The notes: generated from the sequence alone by a model not told the origin. Positions 5,135 through 28,370 are shown, numbered from the stretch's first letter. The stretch is DNA of 64,000 nt from an uncultured Bacillales bacterium (GCA_946534345.1 CAMNCL010000005.1:435-64434); one strand, 5' to 3'. Numbers and translations are program-made.

Positions 5135-6517
5135 TTATTTATTATGATTTACATATTCTTTTGCTACTTTGACATATTTATTATATTTTTCTTCTAATTC
5201 AGCAAAATTGTCATTTACAAAAGCAGAATCATTATCTTTACTCTTTAACTCATGTTGATAAGCGACGTCAGCTAAATCCATAAATCCTAAGTATTTACAA
5301 TCACTCTTTAATGAATGAACTAAGATAGCATATTCAGGCATATTATTTTCTTCTTTAAACTTATTGATATCTGCCCATTTAGCATCTATCTCATCAACAA
5401 AGTCAGATATAGTCATATTATACATTTCCATATCACCTAAAAGCTCTAGTCCATGATTAACATCTACTCCATTAGATTCCAAATAACTACGATCATAAAC
5501 TGTATCAGATGATTCTTCAGTCTTCTCTTCTTCCTTTGATTCTTCTTTTACTTCTTCTTTAACTTCAGTCTCTTCCTTTTTTTCTTCAACTGGAGCTTCC
5601 TCAGTCTTCTCTTCTTCCTTAGGTTCTTCTTTTACTTCTTCTTTAACTTCAGTCTCTTCTTTTTTCTCTTCTACTGGAGCCTCTTCAGTCTTTTCTTCTT
5701 CCTTAGGTTCTTCTTTTACTTCTTCTTTTGCTTCAGGTTCTTCTTTTTTTTCTTCGGCAGGAGCTTCTTCAGCCTTTTCTTCTGCCTTCGGCTCTTCTTT
5801 TACTTCTTCTTTTGTCTCAGACTCTTCTTTTTTCTCTTCTACCGGTGCTTCCTCAGTCTTCTCTTCTTCCTTTTGTTCTTCTTTTACTTCTTCTTTAGTC
5901 TCAGTCTCTTCCTTTTTCTCTTCAACTGGAACTTCCTCAGTCTTTTCTTCTTCCTTTGGTTCTTCTTTTACTTCTTCTTTTGTCTCAGTCTCTTCTTTTT
6001 TCTCTTCTACCGGTGCTTCCTCAGTCTTCTCTTCTTCCTTTGATTCTTCTTTTACTTCTTCTTTTGTCTCAGACTCTTCTTTCTTTTCTTCAACTGGTGC
6101 TTCCTCAGTCTTTTCTTCTTCCTTTGGCTCCTCTTTTACTTCTTCTTTTGTCTCAGACTCTTCTTTCTTTTCTTCAACAGGGGCCTCTTCAGTCTTCTCT
6201 TCTTCTTTAGATTCTTCTTTTACTTCTTCTTTAACTTCAGACTCTTCCTTCTTTTCTTCAACTGGAGCTTCCTCAGTCTTCTCTTCTTCCTTTGATTCTT
6301 CTTTTACTTCTTCTTTAACTTCAGTTTCTTCCTTCTTCTCTTCAACTGGAGTCTCCTCAACCTTTTCTTCTATAGGCGCTTCTTCAATTGTTTTTTCCTC
6401 TACAACACTTTTTTCAGAAGAATCTCCATTAGAAGTTTTTATAGTTCCGTTAAATCCATTAATAACAATTCTTGTAGTTGCCTCTGTTTGTTCAACTAAT
6501 TCATTTTCATCAAACAT
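5135..6517 (-). CDS. HPt (histidine phosphotransfer) domain protein with long Glu/Lys-rich repeat region
   Basis: 460 aa. The C-terminal ~110 aa contain AILVHSLKSDCKYLGFMDLA, which matches the HPt H-x-x-K-G/S...G phosphohistidine motif. Residues ~40-336 are 28-aa acidic repeats. Confidence 0.65.
   Translation of the reverse strand: MFDENELVEQTEATTRIVINGFNGTIKTSNGDSSEKSVVEEKTIEEAPIEEKVEETPVEEKKEETEVKEEVKEESKEEEKTEEAPVEEKKEESEVKEEVKEESKEEEKTEEAPVEEKKEESETKEEVKEEPKEEEKTEEAPVEEKKEESETKEEVKEESKEEEKTEEAPVEEKKEETETKEEVKEEPKEEEKTEEVPVEEKKEETETKEEVKEEQKEEEKTEEAPVEEKKEESETKEEVKEEPKAEEKAEEAPAEEKKEEPEAKEEVKEEPKEEEKTEEAPVEEKKEETEVKEEVKEEPKEEEKTEEAPVEEKKEETEVKEEVKEESKEEEKTEESSDTVYDRSYLESNGVDVNHGLELLGDMEMYNMTISDFVDEIDAKWADINKFKEENNMPEYAILVHSLKSDCKYLGFMDLADVAYQHELKSKDNDSAFVNDNFAELEEKYNKYVKVAKEYVNHNK
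5510..6400 (-). repeat. in-frame tandem repeat, 84-bp (28-aa) period, about 10.5 copies
   Basis: The protein unit EEKTEEAPVEEKKEE(S/T)E(V/T)KEEVKEE(S/P)KE recurs 9 times in full, plus a longer first unit and a truncated last one. The nucleotide units are visibly near-identical. Confidence 0.85.
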
Positions 6518-8933: not shown

Positions 8934-9818
8934 CTACTCAGATTCTCTTAATTCTTCTAGCTTGTCATTAAACTCTTTTGGTGGGTCCACTTGAAAACTC
9001 AACTCTTTTCCAGTTCTTGGATGCTTAAGTTTAATGGAATATGAATGTAACATTTGACCAAACTCAGTACTCTTCTTTCTATTATAAGCTGGATCATTAG
9101 TTACAGGATAACCAATATAAGCTAAATGCACTCTAATTTGATGAGTTCTTCCAGTCTCTAAAATACATTCAATTAAAGTATTATCTTTAAATCTTTCTAA
9201 TACTTTAAAATGAGTAATTGCTTCTTTTGCATTTATATCAGTAACAGCCATCTTTTGTCTATCATTAATATCTCTTCCAATAGGAGCATCTATCTCACCA
9301 GTATCATGTTTAATTAAACCATCTACAATAGCTAAATATTTTCTTTCCACTTTTTTTGTGGAAATCATATTAGATAATTTATCTAACATCTCATCATTTT
9401 TAGCAACTAACATTAATCCACTAGTATCTTTATCTAATCTATGAACAATACCAGGTCTAAGATTTTTAGTAGCTTCTTTTCCTAAATAGAATAATAATGC
9501 ATTAACTAAAGTACCAGTATAATGTCCTGGTGCAGGATGTACAACCATACCACTTGCTTTATTAATAATTAATAAATCATCATCTTCATAGACTATATCT
9601 AGAGGAATATCTTCAGGTTCAACATTAATTTCATAGTTTAAATCATCATTAACAACAATCTCATCATCTAATTTAACAGTATAAGAATTTGATACTTTAT
9701 TGCCATTAACTAATACTAATTCATCTTTAATTAATTTTTGAACTTTACTACGTGATAAATCTAATTCATTTGCCAAGTAACTATCTATTCTTAAACCTTC
9801 ATGATCTTTTACTATCAT
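8934..9818 (-). CDS. rluD: 23S rRNA pseudouridine synthase, RluA/RluD family with S4 domain
   Basis: 294 aa. It has an N-terminal S4-like RIDSYLA...SRSKVQKLI and the catalytic HRLDKDTSGLML motif, plus GRTHQIRVHL. Confidence 0.9.
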   Translation of the reverse strand: MIVKDHEGLRIDSYLANELDLSRSKVQKLIKDELVLVNGNKVSNSYTVKLDDEIVVNDDLNYEINVEPEDIPLDIVYEDDDLLIINKASGMVVHPAPGHYTGTLVNALLFYLGKEATKNLRPGIVHRLDKDTSGLMLVAKNDEMLDKLSNMISTKKVERKYLAIVDGLIKHDTGEIDAPIGRDINDRQKMAVTDINAKEAITHFKVLERFKDNTLIECILETGRTHQIRVHLAYIGYPVTNDPAYNRKKSTEFGQMLHSYSIKLKHPRTGKELSFQVDPPKEFNDKLEELRESE

Positions 9819-24181: not shown

Positions 24182-24454
24182 TTATACTTTAGTTTTTATT
24201 AACAGCTTTACAGTTTCTTTTTTTAGTTCAGTAGCGCCTTTTCTTACATATTCAAAATAATCTTCTTCTGGTCCATATAATCCATCTATATAACCTTCTA
24301 AATACGCTTTATCTCTTTCTTCTTGTAAAAGTATTTCATAATACTCTTGTAATGTTTCTATTTTATCTTGTTCTATCTTATGAATTAAAGCAGCAGGTGT
24401 TACTGCTAAAGCTACTGCTAAAAAAGTAGCAGTTACTTTTTCTTTTGTTTCCAT
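24182..24454 (-). CDS. small hypothetical protein with N-terminal hydrophobic segment
   Basis: 90-aa ORF. VTATFLAVALAVTPAAL is signal/anchor-like. I recognised no motif. Confidence 0.5.
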   Translation of the reverse strand: METKEKVTATFLAVALAVTPAALIHKIEQDKIETLQEYYEILLQEERDKAYLEGYIDGLYGPEEDYFEYVRKGATELKKETVKLLIKTKV

Positions 24455-24531
24455 ATTATCCCCCTATAAGTGTCTCATATTATAAATTAAATTACTTATT
24501 TTGTCAAAAAAAGACTTAGTCTTACTAAGTC

Positions 24532-26418
24532 TTATTTAAAATATTTATGAATTAATAAATCTAATTCTACTAAATCTATAGGTTTTGATAAATAATCATC
24601 AAATCCCTCTTTTATATACATTTCTTTAGAACCAGTAAATGCATTAGCAGTAATTGCGACTACTGGTGGTGCTTTATAATCTTTAAGTTTTCTAATAACT
24701 CTAATTACATCTATACCACTCATTTCAGGCATTCTATGATCAATTAGAATCATATCGTATTGTTCACCTTTTTTATACTTAAAGATACAATCTCTACCAT
24801 TAGTACTAGTATCTATTTGGAATCCATATCTTCCAAATAATCTTTTAGATACTTCTAGATTCATATAATCATCTTCTACAATTAGAATTCTATATTTAGA
24901 GCAATCCATAACTGAAATATCAGCAGCAGCTTTCTTTTCTCTAACCTTATAATTACCAACTGTAGGTGTTAATTCAACTATTTGTTGTGGTATTTCTACA
25001 TGGAAAGTACTTCCTGCACCATAAACACTATCTACTTTTATATTTCCTCCTAATAAGTCAATATACTTTTTAGAAATAGCTAATCCTAATCCAGAACCAT
25101 CTATTCCTTTTTCAATAGCATCTTCCAATCTAGAATACTTTTCAAATATCTTATCATAATCTTCTTCTCTAATACCTATACCAGTATCACTAATTTTAAA
25201 CATTAAACTTACTTTAGAATTCTTCATTTCTTTAGATAAAGTTAATGTTACTTTACCAACTTCAGTATATTTAATCGCATTAGAAATAATATTAGAAATA
25301 ATTTGAAAAATCTTAGTTGAATCACCATATAATTTATTTGGAATAGAATTATCAATATTAATTATTAATTCTATCTTCTTATTAACTAACTTTTCTCTTA
25401 TATCATCTATTAAGTCATTTAATACTGATACTAATGAGTAATTAGCTTCATATAGTTTATCTTGATCATTCTCTACATTAGAAATATCTACTGCATTATC
25501 TAATACCTCTAAGAATTCTTTACTAGATGCTTCTATTTGTTTTATATTATCAATTAATTCTTGTCCTTCAATTTCAGTATTAGTTAGTATTCCTTTACTT
25601 AATGTAGATATAGCATTAATAGGAGGTACCATTTCTTTAGATACATTTGATAAGAAATCCAATTTAGTATGATTAGTCTGTTCTATTTCTCCAGTTAAAG
25701 ACTCTATTTGTTCAACCATTTCTAAGTCTGGATTTTCTAATAAGAAATATAATCCTAAAACATAAATAGCTGAAACAAGTCCCATTATAGCTATATCACT
25801 AAATAATGGTTGGAATACTAATATTATAATCATCAAACTAAATAACCAAATTAAACTTGCTCTTTCAGTAAAATTAATCTTCTTCCTTACTACAAATAGA
25901 ATTATAAAGATAGTTTCCATAGTAGTAATTACACAATAAAGAATTGTTGCGTAGAAAGCTAGTCCTCCAAAAGCTAGATTAATTGTTTCCTTTGTAGCAT
26001 ACTCATATGGTAAGAATAAATGTACTACTATAAATATTATTGTAAATATAAAGTGAGGAAGTAACTTTTTACTTGTAAATATCTCTCCTTTTAACATTTC
26101 CACAGCATTTTTATATTGCTTATCATTAACTGCTGAATAGTAATAGAATAATAAACTTGAAAAGAATAATACCATACTTAAATCTCTTAATTGTAAAGCA
26201 ATAGTACAAATATTAAATGGTAAATCAAAACCAAAAGCTAACATGATCATTATTTCTATAAGTAATATTCCTGTATTAGCACTAATTAATAATGCATACA
26301 TTTTATGTTTAGTTTTATCACTAATCTTTGGCTTAGTAAAATATAAAACATCTATCATTATAATGATTATTGTAGCTGCTAGAGTTAAGATATATCTTGA
26401 ATACATTATATTATTCAT
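24532..26418 (-). CDS. hybrid sensor kinase/response regulator paralogue lacking the H-box histidine
   Basis: It has a multi-TM N-terminus. The DHp region reads KLDFLSNVSKEMVPPINAI, with SKE where SHE is expected. The N, G1 and G2 boxes are intact (ISNAIKYT, ISDTGIGI, GSGLGLAISKKY). The REC domain is canonical (IVEDD, MILIDHRMP, AITA, LSKP). I moved the start to the ATG at 26418, after AAGGAGGTG. Confidence 0.85.
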   Translation of the reverse strand: MNNIMYSRYILTLAATIIIIMIDVLYFTKPKISDKTKHKMYALLISANTGILLIEIMIMLAFGFDLPFNICTIALQLRDLSMVLFFSSLLFYYYSAVNDKQYKNAVEMLKGEIFTSKKLLPHFIFTIIFIVVHLFLPYEYATKETINLAFGGLAFYATILYCVITTMETIFIILFVVRKKINFTERASLIWLFSLMIIILVFQPLFSDIAIMGLVSAIYVLGLYFLLENPDLEMVEQIESLTGEIEQTNHTKLDFLSNVSKEMVPPINAISTLSKGILTNTEIEGQELIDNIKQIEASSKEFLEVLDNAVDISNVENDQDKLYEANYSLVSVLNDLIDDIREKLVNKKIELIINIDNSIPNKLYGDSTKIFQIISNIISNAIKYTEVGKVTLTLSKEMKNSKVSLMFKISDTGIGIREEDYDKIFEKYSRLEDAIEKGIDGSGLGLAISKKYIDLLGGNIKVDSVYGAGSTFHVEIPQQIVELTPTVGNYKVREKKAAADISVMDCSKYRILIVEDDYMNLEVSKRLFGRYGFQIDTSTNGRDCIFKYKKGEQYDMILIDHRMPEMSGIDVIRVIRKLKDYKAPPVVAITANAFTGSKEMYIKEGFDDYLSKPIDLVELDLLIHKYFK

Positions 26419-28306
26419 TAGAAACACCTCCTTCATTTAGAGAAGTTTCATTTTCTAAAATCTTAGTTAATACTTTCTTTATTTCATTCTCTTCAATTGG
26501 TTTTACTAAACAATCTGAGAAGCCTTTACTATTATATAATTCTTTATCTTCAGTAGTTAAGGTATCAACCATAAGTATTGCTTTAGGAATATCTAATTTT
26601 AAATCTTTAATTTTATCATAAGCAAGTACTCCATCAAATACCGGTAATTGATCAGCTAAGAAAATAACATCATAATGATTATTTTTAACAGTATCAACTG
26701 CTTCTTCACCATTTTTACATACATCAACTTTAGCATTATACTTTTCTAATATTATCTTAACTAAATTTCTCTTAGTTTCATTCTCTTCTGCCACTAGAAT
26801 TCTCTTACCTGCTAAATCAAATGGTTTTTCTTCTTCTTTTTCTACTTTTGCTGTCTTAGGATCAAGCTTTTCTTCTGATTGTTGTTCTAGAGTGAACAAA
26901 TATCCATTTTCTTCTTTTAAATACTCTAATTTTCCATTCATTGCTTCAGCTAAGTTCTTCGCAACTAACATACCTAATGACTCACTATCCATGTTTAATC
27001 CAAATGCTGATTCAGCATTATCAACATCTAAAGATTCACGTGATTTACCAGGTAATTTAATAGTAAATACATATTCAAAAATATCATTCTTTTTTGGATT
27101 TCCTGTTACTTCTAATTGTACTTGTCCGCTTTTTGTATTAGCTAGAGCACTAGTTAATACATTAAATAATACTTTAGCTATTCTTTCTGAATCTCCTACT
27201 AATTCATTAGGAACACTCTTACTTACATTACAACTAAAACTAACATCATCACTTTTTATTTTCTCTTCTACATTACTGTTAACTTCAAATATCATTTGTC
27301 TAACATCATATTTCTTATTAACTATTTCTTCTTTTTCAGATAATACATGTGAATAGTCAGATATATTATTAATTAGCGATAATAATGAAACAGATGCTTC
27401 ATGAATATTAGTTATGTCTTCTCTTACACTTTCTTTAGTAATATTATCTTGTTCTAACAATAATTGACTAAGTCCCATAATAGTATTCATTGGAGAACGT
27501 ATTTGATGAGACATATTAGCTAAGAAATCTTTTTGTGAAGTAGTTGCATTTTCAGCATCTTCTTGTTTTTGCTTAGCCATATTTAATAATACATAATCTT
27601 GATTTTCTATAGTAAAGAAAATTCCTAATGCAAATATAGTTAATTGGAATGTTTCAATATTAATATCTATTCCTGTAATTAATCTGTGTGCTAAAAACAA
27701 AACTACTATTACTAATGATACAACACTAGGATATAAATCTCTTCTAGTAATACTGTCATTTTTTGCATATAAAAGAGCAACGAACATAGATGTTGAGACA
27801 AATACATAAATAAGAGTTACAGTTATCGGTACACTCTTAAAAGCATAAATACCATAATTTGTATATATTTCAACTGGCATTACAAATAATAATACAACTA
27901 TTACTACTTCTATTAGAACTATTAATGCAAAAAATATACGTTTTAAAACATTTCTCTTAGGATCACTCGAATTAAGAAATAATCGATATGTAATAACAAA
28001 TGCCCATGAAAAGAAAGTAGTAAACAAAATACTAATAAAGTATAACTGATATAATAAAGTAGCATACCTTCCATCTTCTCCTACATTTAAGTAATATAGT
28101 ACATATCCAATTTCAACTAAACTCATAACTATAATTGAACATAATACTAATATAAAATAACGACTTCTTTCTTCTAGTTTTTCTTTACGATTCTTAAAAA
28201 AATAAGAAAATATAACACATAAACAAATACAAATTGCACTTATTGAAAAACCTGTATTTGTAAAAAATAAAAGCACTGTATTCACATTATCAATCCTCTC
28301 TATCAT
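26411..28306 (-). CDS. hybrid sensor kinase/response regulator paralogue with intact H box but degenerate ATP-binding boxes
   Basis: It has a multi-TM N-terminus and the H box DFLANMSHQIRSPMNTIMG. In the CA region, G1 (DxGxG) is absent (FTIKLPGKS) and G2 is degenerate (SESLGMLVAKNL). The REC domain has EE instead of DD but retains Asp (FLADQLP) and Lys (LVKP). Confidence 0.8.
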   Translation of the reverse strand: MIERIDNVNTVLLFFTNTGFSISAICICLCVIFSYFFKNRKEKLEERSRYFILVLCSIIVMSLVEIGYVLYYLNVGEDGRYATLLYQLYFISILFTTFFSWAFVITYRLFLNSSDPKRNVLKRIFFALIVLIEVVIVVLLFVMPVEIYTNYGIYAFKSVPITVTLIYVFVSTSMFVALLYAKNDSITRRDLYPSVVSLVIVVLFLAHRLITGIDINIETFQLTIFALGIFFTIENQDYVLLNMAKQKQEDAENATTSQKDFLANMSHQIRSPMNTIMGLSQLLLEQDNITKESVREDITNIHEASVSLLSLINNISDYSHVLSEKEEIVNKKYDVRQMIFEVNSNVEEKIKSDDVSFSCNVSKSVPNELVGDSERIAKVLFNVLTSALANTKSGQVQLEVTGNPKKNDIFEYVFTIKLPGKSRESLDVDNAESAFGLNMDSESLGMLVAKNLAEAMNGKLEYLKEENGYLFTLEQQSEEKLDPKTAKVEKEEEKPFDLAGKRILVAEENETKRNLVKIILEKYNAKVDVCKNGEEAVDTVKNNHYDVIFLADQLPVFDGVLAYDKIKDLKLDIPKAILMVDTLTTEDKELYNSKGFSDCLVKPIEENEIKKVLTKILENETSLNEGGVSNE

Positions 28307-28370
28307 AATAATTCTAACACAATTGTTTCGTTATTTCTACTATAATTTTACGTAATTTTTTTGAATACAA

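Follow-up and report, generated by a model that had tools for sequence, protein, structure and literature searches.

A putative split hybrid histidine kinase encoded by two overlapping paralogous genes of an uncultured Bacillales bacterium

We analyzed a 64,000-nt stretch of DNA from an uncultured Bacillales bacterium (GCA_946534345.1 CAMNCL010000005.1:435-64434), referred to here as the window, focusing on region 24532-28306, where two overlapping genes encode paralogous hybrid histidine kinases with seven-transmembrane (7-TM) membrane domains. The product of the upstream gene, protein B, has the phospho-accepting His and a dead ATP site; the product of the downstream gene, protein A, has an active-looking catalytic and ATP-binding (CA) domain and receiver and carries Lys at the phospho-His position. 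At the motif level, the His and the ATP site reside on different proteins in ~30 lineages. We propose, with a probability of roughly 0.6, that B and A, as one subunit each, make up a hard-wired split hybrid histidine kinase in which the CA domain of A phosphorylates the His of B. The conserved ATP site of A needs a His that A lacks, and the invariant His of B needs a kinase that B cannot be, which makes pairing of A with B the simplest explanation.

The window is very AT-rich (GC ~26%) and derives from a small, reduced genome of 1.29 Mb in 35 contigs that is roughly 96% complete. The nearest named relatives are uncultured gut 'Bacilli bacterium' metagenome-assembled genomes (MAGs). A scan of named genomes retrieved distant relatives only, headed by an 'uncultured Bacilli bacterium' MAG at 38% identity, and no orthologues.

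Motif states and gene coupling

A preliminary description of this DNA, made from the sequence alone, had reported two overlapping paralogous multi-TM hybrid kinases. Both open reading frames (ORFs) are present on the minus strand, and their 8-nt overlap is real. The genes and the domains of their products are:

24532..26418, minus strand: gene A (P0001), 628 aa, downstream 7-TM hybrid-kinase paralogue; CA domain and receiver active-looking, no phospho-His
25723..26418, minus strand: membrane domain of A (aa 1-232), homologous to that of B, ending in the family motif ENPD
25459..25701, minus strand: His-less dimerization and histidine phosphotransfer (DHp) domain of A (aa 240-320), FLSNVSKEMVPP, with the Lys261 codon at 25636..25638
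24964..25458, minus strand: catalytic CA domain of A (aa 321-485), with N box NIISNAIKYT, G1 box DTGIGI and G2 box GSGLGL
24544..24894, minus strand: canonical receiver of A (aa 509-625), with VEDD, LIDHRMP, ITANAF and SKPI
26411..28306, minus strand: gene B (P0002), 631 aa, upstream 7-TM hybrid-kinase paralogue; phospho-His present, ATP site dead
27605..28306, minus strand: membrane domain of B (aa 1-234), 7 predicted helices, ending in the family motif ENQD
27338..27598, minus strand: DHp domain of B (aa 237-323), a HisKA match with H box FLANMSHQIRSPMN and the His267 codon at 27506..27508
26867..27328, minus strand: CA-like pseudokinase domain of B (aa 327-480), with N box NVLTSALANT, KLPGKS in place of G1 and SESLGM in place of G2
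26444..26803, minus strand: degenerate receiver of B (aa 502-621), with EE for DD, Asp kept (FLADQLP), Val for Thr and Lys kept

Protein A matches HATPase_c with 92.7 bits and Response_reg with 77.7 bits (Pfam cut-offs 26.4 and 30.2 bits), and scores 14.1 bits against HisKA, below the 26.9-bit cut-off. A phmmer alignment to solved kinases places Lys261 in the phospho-His column (FLSNVSKEM in A versus FLATVSHEI of 7p8e and FLANMSHEI of 7z8n), and the hidden Markov model alignment likewise puts Lys, not His, at the acceptor column, with the DHp domain holding no other conserved His. The Lys-for-His substitution and the intact N, G1 and G2 boxes and receiver read earlier from the sequence are therefore sound. 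Measured against what defines a HisKA-type kinase, A has all three nucleotide-binding boxes and no phospho-accepting His; measured against what defines a hybrid kinase, it has a C-terminal receiver complete with acidic pair, phospho-Asp, Thr and Lys.

Protein B is the mirror image with respect to the DHp and CA domains. It matches HisKA (52.6 bits) and Response_reg (55.4 bits), and its HATPase_c score of 23.0 bits falls below the cut-off. The normal H box, missing G1 and degenerate G2 of the preliminary description are borne out by the family alignment, in which B has neither the DxGxG of G1 nor the GxGxGL of G2. Two further substitutions had escaped that description: the N box is degenerate too (NVLTSALANT, with the Mg-binding Asn changed to Ser and Lys to Ala), and the receiver, whose EE-for-DD exchange is seen in the family alignment, has Val at the conserved Thr position (ILMVDTL). 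The phmmer alignment of B to the same solved kinase chains ends after the N-box region. With His267 present and the nucleotide-binding boxes lost in B, and the reverse in A, neither protein alone combines both defining features of a HisKA kinase.

An AlphaFold2 model of B (mean predicted local distance difference test score, pLDDT, 76.7) contains seven TM helices, a two-helix DHp domain and a CA-like fold with a low-confidence lid, followed by a well-folded receiver (pLDDT about 90). In Foldseek searches with the kinase core of this model, ShkA and GacS are closest by E-value; the kinase region of RetS is matched most consistently (TM-score up to 0.75), and DivL is a further match.

The conserved His residues of A lie only in the membrane domain and the receiver, with none in the DHp domain, and an alternative acceptor His in A was rejected. 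Three of them in the 7-TM domain, His38, His122 and His133, are conserved in 26-30 of 30 orthologues and may be ligand or metal contacts of this sensor domain, which has no Pfam family.

The two genes are joined at a compact junction with the sequence GAAGGAGGTGTTTCTAATGAATAA. It and the flanking signals are:

26411..26431, minus strand: coupling junction, with GGAGG at 26427..26431, an 8-nt spacer, the A ATG at 26416..26418 and the B TAA at 26411..26413
24511..24533, minus strand: terminator-like hairpin (10 bp and a T-run) directly after the A stop
24507..24479, minus strand: perfect promoter TTGACA-17-TATAAT of the next gene, after the hairpin
28311..28339, minus strand: weakly supported promoter-like site just ahead of the B start, TAGAAA-17-TAGAAT with TG

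The longest A ORF begins at 26436, and the ribosome-binding site favors the start at 26418. The GGAGG 8 nt before the A ATG, together with the B TAA inside the 8-nt overlap, indicates that A and B are translationally coupled. With this junction, the hairpin after the A stop and the promoter of the next gene behind it mark B and A as a two-gene operon. Of these signals outside the junction only the terminator is informative: terminator-like sites are enriched (4 seen versus 0.4 expected), and promoter-like sites are not in such AT-rich DNA (30 seen versus 36.8 expected).

Conservation across orthologues and origin of the pair

Orthologues of A form about 30 clusters in a large protein database, at 49-67% identity. 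The counts given here cover P0001 and P0004-P0032 (n = 30, 55-67% identity), with P0033 kept apart as an exception. His is absent from the acceptor column in all 30, which reads Lys in 19, Arg in 7, Gln in 2, and Thr and Glu in 1 each. The surrounding H box, F-L-S-N-V-S-x-E-M-x-x-P, is almost invariant in its flanks, and the acceptor column is its most variable position. The N, G1 and G2 boxes and the DD/D/T/K residues of the receiver are conserved.

The B orthogroup comprises about 40 clusters at 42-54% identity. In an alignment of 35 sequences (31 orthologues and 4 more distant B-type and related sequences), His is invariant (35/35), and every B-type sequence lacks DxGxG in G1 and a Gly-rich motif in G2. 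Most B orthologues have no receiver and carry a Glu/Lys-rich tail in its place; the few remaining receivers are degenerate, three of them with Glu at the phospho-Asp position. Receiver loss is scattered over the B clade of the tree, a pattern suggesting that selection on this domain has been relaxed from the origin of the clade onward.

Constraint, expressed as mean pairwise identity per domain, is distributed asymmetrically (the closest orthologue with DNA is 63% identical, and synonymous sites are saturated). The membrane domains are equally conserved (57% in A and 57% in B), and the DHp domain reaches 56% in A and 61% in B, where it is the best-conserved domain. The CA domain of A stands at 62% (68% in the lid half), versus 37% for the CA-like domain of B (33% in the lid half), a value equal to the 37% of the A linker. 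The receiver is the most conserved domain of A (70%) and mostly absent from B. Judged by these identities, the CA-like domain of B evolves like linker sequence. The His-less DHp domain of A is still constrained, which would be expected if pairing and docking require it structurally.

The gene arrangement is conserved along with the motifs. Three same-genus genomes (G017, G043 and G045) hold the orthologous pair; a fourth (G054) has the B orthologue on a contig that stops before any A gene. Every A orthologue whose neighborhood was read has a B gene directly upstream, and the overlapping ribosome-binding site and start are kept in the loci examined. Nearly all B orthologues end in a conserved EEGGVSN(V/A/E), encoded by the same DNA as the A ribosome-binding site and start; the B-then-A order and the coupling are thus themselves conserved. 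Four loci illustrate the range of states:

L103: Lys variant of A; B with a tail and no receiver
L104: Glu variant of A; B with a degenerate receiver
L105: Tyr variant of A; B G1 reads SNTGHAM
L107, 2128..5875: P0184 (B) and P0033 (A), with the B gene directly upstream of A

These data speak to the simplest alternative, namely that A and B are decaying duplicates on their way to becoming pseudogenes, with coincidental complementarity. Each protein does fall below the Pfam threshold in one domain, the genome is small and reduced, and one lineage shows further decay of the A catalytic motifs. Set against this, both ORFs are intact in ~30 lineages, which share the complementary motif states at identities as low as 42-49%, while the other domains are strongly conserved and so are the overlap and the ribosome-binding site. 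The survey of relatives, in which the complementary pattern, the intact ORFs and the adjacency are all kept, contradicts strain-specific decay, and we reject this alternative as extremely improbable.

In the source genome, the 7-TM hybrid kinases of this family number seven; their genes form three clusters, in all of which an A directly follows each B:

Type A, N, G1 and G2 boxes intact: C5_dn (A of the window), C3_dn, C17_b and C17_d
Type B, His present, G1 reading NTGHE, NSGHL or KLPGK, G2 glycines lost: C5_up (B of the window), C3_up and C17_c

In a tree of 76 sequences, types A and B are reciprocally monophyletic (support 100); a single old duplication therefore produced the partner type with the dead lid, and duplications of A-B pairs followed. 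Dead-lid B is the ancestral state, and it is paired with A in all three clusters. Among the paralogues of the genome, His is missing from A of the window only. What is special to the lineage of the window pair is the loss of His from A and the decay or loss of the B receiver, not the dead lid. The stems of the His-less A clade and of its B-partner clade are long (0.63 and 0.89), as expected for joint specialization of A and B. The division of labor suggested in the preliminary description, with catalysis in A and the His in B, gains from the motif conservation and the partitioned constraint, and is qualified in one respect: the dead lid is not unique to this pair.

A possible evolutionary path begins with a duplication that yielded the dead-lid partner; the catalytic partner would then have lost its useless His, and the other subunit its useless receiver. 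In this proposal, an A protein that acts in trans on a dead-lid B never has its own His charged, leaving that residue free to drift, and the B receiver becomes redundant and decays.

In P0036-P0038, a more distant sister group of A, the phospho-His column is occupied by Tyr, as in DivL. This variant is found at L105 3128..6851 (GCA_051872765.1, JBJEED010000088.1), with a dead-lid B partner, P0124, upstream whose receiver motifs look nearly intact. The Tyr group might represent a second, independent loss of the His; it shares a polytomy with two His-bearing paralogues, C3_dn and C17_d, and a single change is all that the starred branches of the tree force.

Proposed mechanism, alternatives and precedents

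In the mechanism we favor, one bicistronic, translationally coupled mRNA would supply both subunits; their homologous 7-TM domains would take them into the membrane, and they would associate, most simply as a DHp heterodimer. The intact CA domain of A would phosphorylate His267 of B in trans, and the phosphoryl group would move from His267 of B to Asp560 of A, the sole competent receiver of the complex, then to a histidine phosphotransfer (HPt) domain and on to a response regulator. Such a complex would hold exactly one working His (in B), one working CA domain (in A) and one working receiver (in A). That A provides the only acceptor follows from the B receiver being degenerate or replaced by a low-complexity tail. 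The assembly is probably an obligate heterodimer, as the preliminary description had envisaged, as opposed to a higher-order A2:B2 complex.

Several points weigh against this mechanism. If autophosphorylation geometry were cis-only, the CA domain of A could not reach the His of B in a simple DHp heterodimer. The genome holds 4 other His-bearing and 3 other CA-active paralogues, so that cross-pair partnerships are possible. A retains the Glu at H+1 and often Ser, Thr or Asn at H+4, residues that might reflect a phosphatase-type function of its DHp domain, which the model does not require. Finally, in the P0033/P0184 lineage the N, G1 and G2 boxes of A are degenerate, while both ORFs, the B His and the A receiver persist. 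This pair appears to have no kinase activity of its own, so kinase activity is not maintained everywhere, and its persistence with degenerate ATP sites is a hint of a further role that does not depend on kinase activity.

Among precedents, FasB/FasC of group A Streptococcus comes closest, a pair of adjacent membrane sensor-kinase paralogues in which FasC is a proposed pseudokinase: the DHp His246 of FasC is required but the FasC kinase domain is not, that domain being provided by FasB, and two-hybrid assays detected heterodimers and no homodimers (PMC12675982, Mol Microbiol 2025). The likeness lies in gene arrangement and motif states. The Fas kinases lack the hybrid architecture and pass their signal straight to a ComE-like (LytTR-type) regulator, whereas A and B are HisKA-type 7-TM hybrids; no LytTR regulator was found among the receiver proteins of the genome. 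FasB also retains its DHp His (H284), making cis phosphorylation possible there, whereas both defects are hard-wired in A and B, which in addition confine the receiver, as a third function, to a single subunit. A and B score best against BarA, ArcB and TorS-type models and show no specific homology to the Fas kinases; on sequence grounds they are an analogue of FasBC, not a member.

A second precedent raises the question of how the subunits are arranged. In Rhodobacter sphaeroides, neither CheA3 nor CheA4 autophosphorylates alone, and CheA4 phosphorylates the His of CheA3, which made the pair the founding 'split kinase' (PMC3591291, PMC6829392); the concept was also predicted for HisKA-only proteins (PMC3591291). 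These proteins are soluble and non-hybrid, with the His on a separate P1 domain and a split by absence of whole domains, in contrast to the point degeneration of two full-length 7-TM hybrid paralogues in A and B. Inter-protein phosphorylation between CheA4 and CheA3 needs no shared helical bundle (PMC3591291), and A and B could likewise keep the same division of labor as separate homodimers that associate, for example, via their 7-TM domains, with phosphorylation passing between dimers. The 56% conservation of a His-less A DHp domain suits homodimerization, and the conservation evidence as a whole fits this arrangement equally well. We nevertheless consider it unlikely: a HisKA-type CA domain is tethered near its own bundle, so that the His of another dimer is sterically harder to reach; translational coupling favors co-assembly of nascent chains; and FasB/FasC gave heterodimer, not homodimer, signals in two-hybrid assays (PMC12675982).

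The Foldseek matches of B bring a different class of partner kinases into view. RetS and GacS, with PA1611 and LadS, belong to a multikinase network of Pseudomonas aeruginosa in which hybrid kinases form DHp heterodimers (RetS-GacS; PMC12189002; PDB 6dk7, 6dk8, 7n0e), and DivL of Caulobacter is a pseudo-histidine kinase with Tyr at the His position that works through a partner kinase (PMC12189002; PDB 4q20). By analogy, B might be a RetS/DivL-type regulatory pseudokinase that modulates or drains phosphoryl flow, binding A or other A-type paralogues without being an obligatory phospho-acceptor, and A mainly a receiver or phosphatase module that other kinases feed via HPt proteins. The modeled kinase core of B, which matches RetS most consistently and DivL also, is compatible with this, as are the established RetS-GacS heterodimers and DivL-CckA complex (PMC12189002), the retained H+1 and H+4 residues of A, and the P0033/P0184 pair, which keeps both ORFs despite two degenerate ATP sites. 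It leaves unexplained why the ATP-binding motifs of A are among its best-conserved parts in 29/30 lineages, and why the B His is invariant while the B receiver is dispensable. The systems also differ in kind. RetS acts as an inhibitor, blocking and draining GacS; each of the two can also homodimerize, and their genes do not form an adjacent paralogous pair with reciprocal defects. DivL has dispensable catalytic activity and regulates CckA allosterically, whereas the catalytic motifs of A are strongly conserved and the ATP-less protein is its partner. A regulatory role of this kind for B seems quite unlikely.

Spo0B and ChpT combine a DHp-like His bundle with a CA-like domain that is unable to bind ATP; B has the His and a dead CA domain. 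B could be a membrane-anchored phosphotransferase of this type, fed by the A receiver, itself charged by another kinase, and passing phosphoryl groups on, for example, to Spo0A. The genome does encode Spo0A and only one classical two-component pair, and in the other clusters the A partner of the ancestral dead-lid B does carry a His. Under this scheme, the conserved CA domain of A would be without a role, A having no His. The genome already has separate HPt domains, and the tree places B as a recent paralogue of A-type kinases and no relative of Spo0B or ChpT, which are soluble whereas B has a 7-TM domain. We regard this route as improbable and retain trans-phosphorylation of B by A as the preferred explanation.

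The chemistry that the split kinase calls for has been seen in the laboratory: in EnvZ, NtrB and CheA, mutant subunits lacking the His and mutant subunits lacking the ATP site together restore trans phosphorylation. Those are engineered mutants of homodimers, whereas A and B are natural, encoded by two genes and evolutionarily stable. In Mycobacterium tuberculosis, the ATP-binding and His-bearing parts of a kinase are reported to be divided between the products of two adjacent genes, Rv0600c and Rv0601c. The two appear to be non-hybrid, single-domain fragments; A and B are full-length paralogues with one domain degenerate in each. Domain splitting of EnvZ is cited in PMC3591291, and the mycobacterial system is described as two sensor kinases and one regulator, TcrA (PMC3544749). 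Literature searches aimed at hybrid kinases with complementary degeneration turned up no identical system and no published account of this family.

Histidine kinases are taught as symmetric homodimers, and the origin of asymmetry, half-of-sites reactivity and cis versus trans autophosphorylation is still argued mostly from engineered mutants. The A/B pair would offer a natural, evolutionarily stable case in which the three chemistries of a hybrid kinase are distributed over two full-length paralogues, with the His in B and ATP catalysis and the receiver Asp in A. It would be a ready-made heteromer for structural and kinetic work with ~30 natural sequence variants, and it would extend the logic of FasBC to HisKA-type hybrid kinases. 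For annotation, it cautions against writing off the 'degenerate' kinases of gut metagenomes as pseudogenes. In a little-known group of gut Bacilli with small genomes, A and B may also serve as the main sensory input.

Candidate relay partners and neighboring features

The contig's only receiver matches are A and B, in agreement with the earlier statement that the window has no DNA-binding response regulator, and no regulator is linked to the pair by position. An HPt protein had been reported at 5135..6517 and is confirmed there:

5135..6517, minus strand: P0183, candidate downstream phosphotransfer protein, 460 aa, in which an HPt domain follows ~330 aa of Glu/Lys-rich repeats

The HPt domain of P0183 scores 22.8 to 26.1 bits, has the motif VHSLKSDCKYLGF and closely resembles the C-terminal HPt domain of the paralogue C17_d. 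P0183 may act with the A/B pair. The genome has three HPt domains in all, in P0183, in C17_d and in an HPt-receiver protein on contig C2, and each of them is a candidate to accept the phosphoryl group from A. The latter (about 14.9..15.75 kb, 268 aa) has an N-terminal HPt domain (VHSLTSDANYFGF) and a C-terminal receiver and no output domain, and is another candidate relay node.

Beyond the seven hybrid kinases, the genome encodes one classical kinase/OmpR-type pair, a truncated regulator copy, the HPt-receiver protein and Spo0A. Spo0A is bona fide (Spo0A_C 124.9 bits; contig C20, about 9026..9790). With Spo0A present in a genome whose only kinases are one classical histidine kinase and seven hybrids, a relay that runs from a hybrid kinase via an HPt domain to Spo0A is possible. 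More broadly, and quite tentatively, the whole A/B family could consist of asymmetric obligate heterodimeric hybrid kinases, with the window pair as an end state and the seven members forming the entire sensor layer of a non-canonical relay via HPt to Spo0A. If true, phosphorylation would occur only in trans, from A to B and back, and the relay would replace KinA-Spo0F-Spo0B in reduced-genome gut Bacilli; we think this doubtful.

The truncated regulator copy (contig C2, about 153606..153827; 154 aa) duplicates the first three quarters of the receiver of the OmpR-type regulator at C2:164247, and is probably a pseudogene fragment.

Glu/Lys-rich repeats (e.g. EEKKEETEVKEEVKEESKEEEKTEEAPV) make up the bulk of P0183 and the linker between receiver and HPt domain in C17_d (contig C17 8661..11921). 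They also form the tails that replace the receiver in B orthologues (L070 3922..6087, L072 and L103). The repeats resemble ER/K-type single-helix spacers, and in one assembly an N-gap lies inside one of them.

A small protein of 90-116 aa is encoded after the A gene in the source genome, G017 and G043 (loci: window 24182..24454, minus strand; L011 1077..1418; L070 8035..8385), with the motif TPAA-V-KIEQDK...YYE-LLEEE...Y-G-DGL-G. It is absent in G045 and L104, and the window copy has its own perfect consensus promoter. This protein may be an accessory factor.

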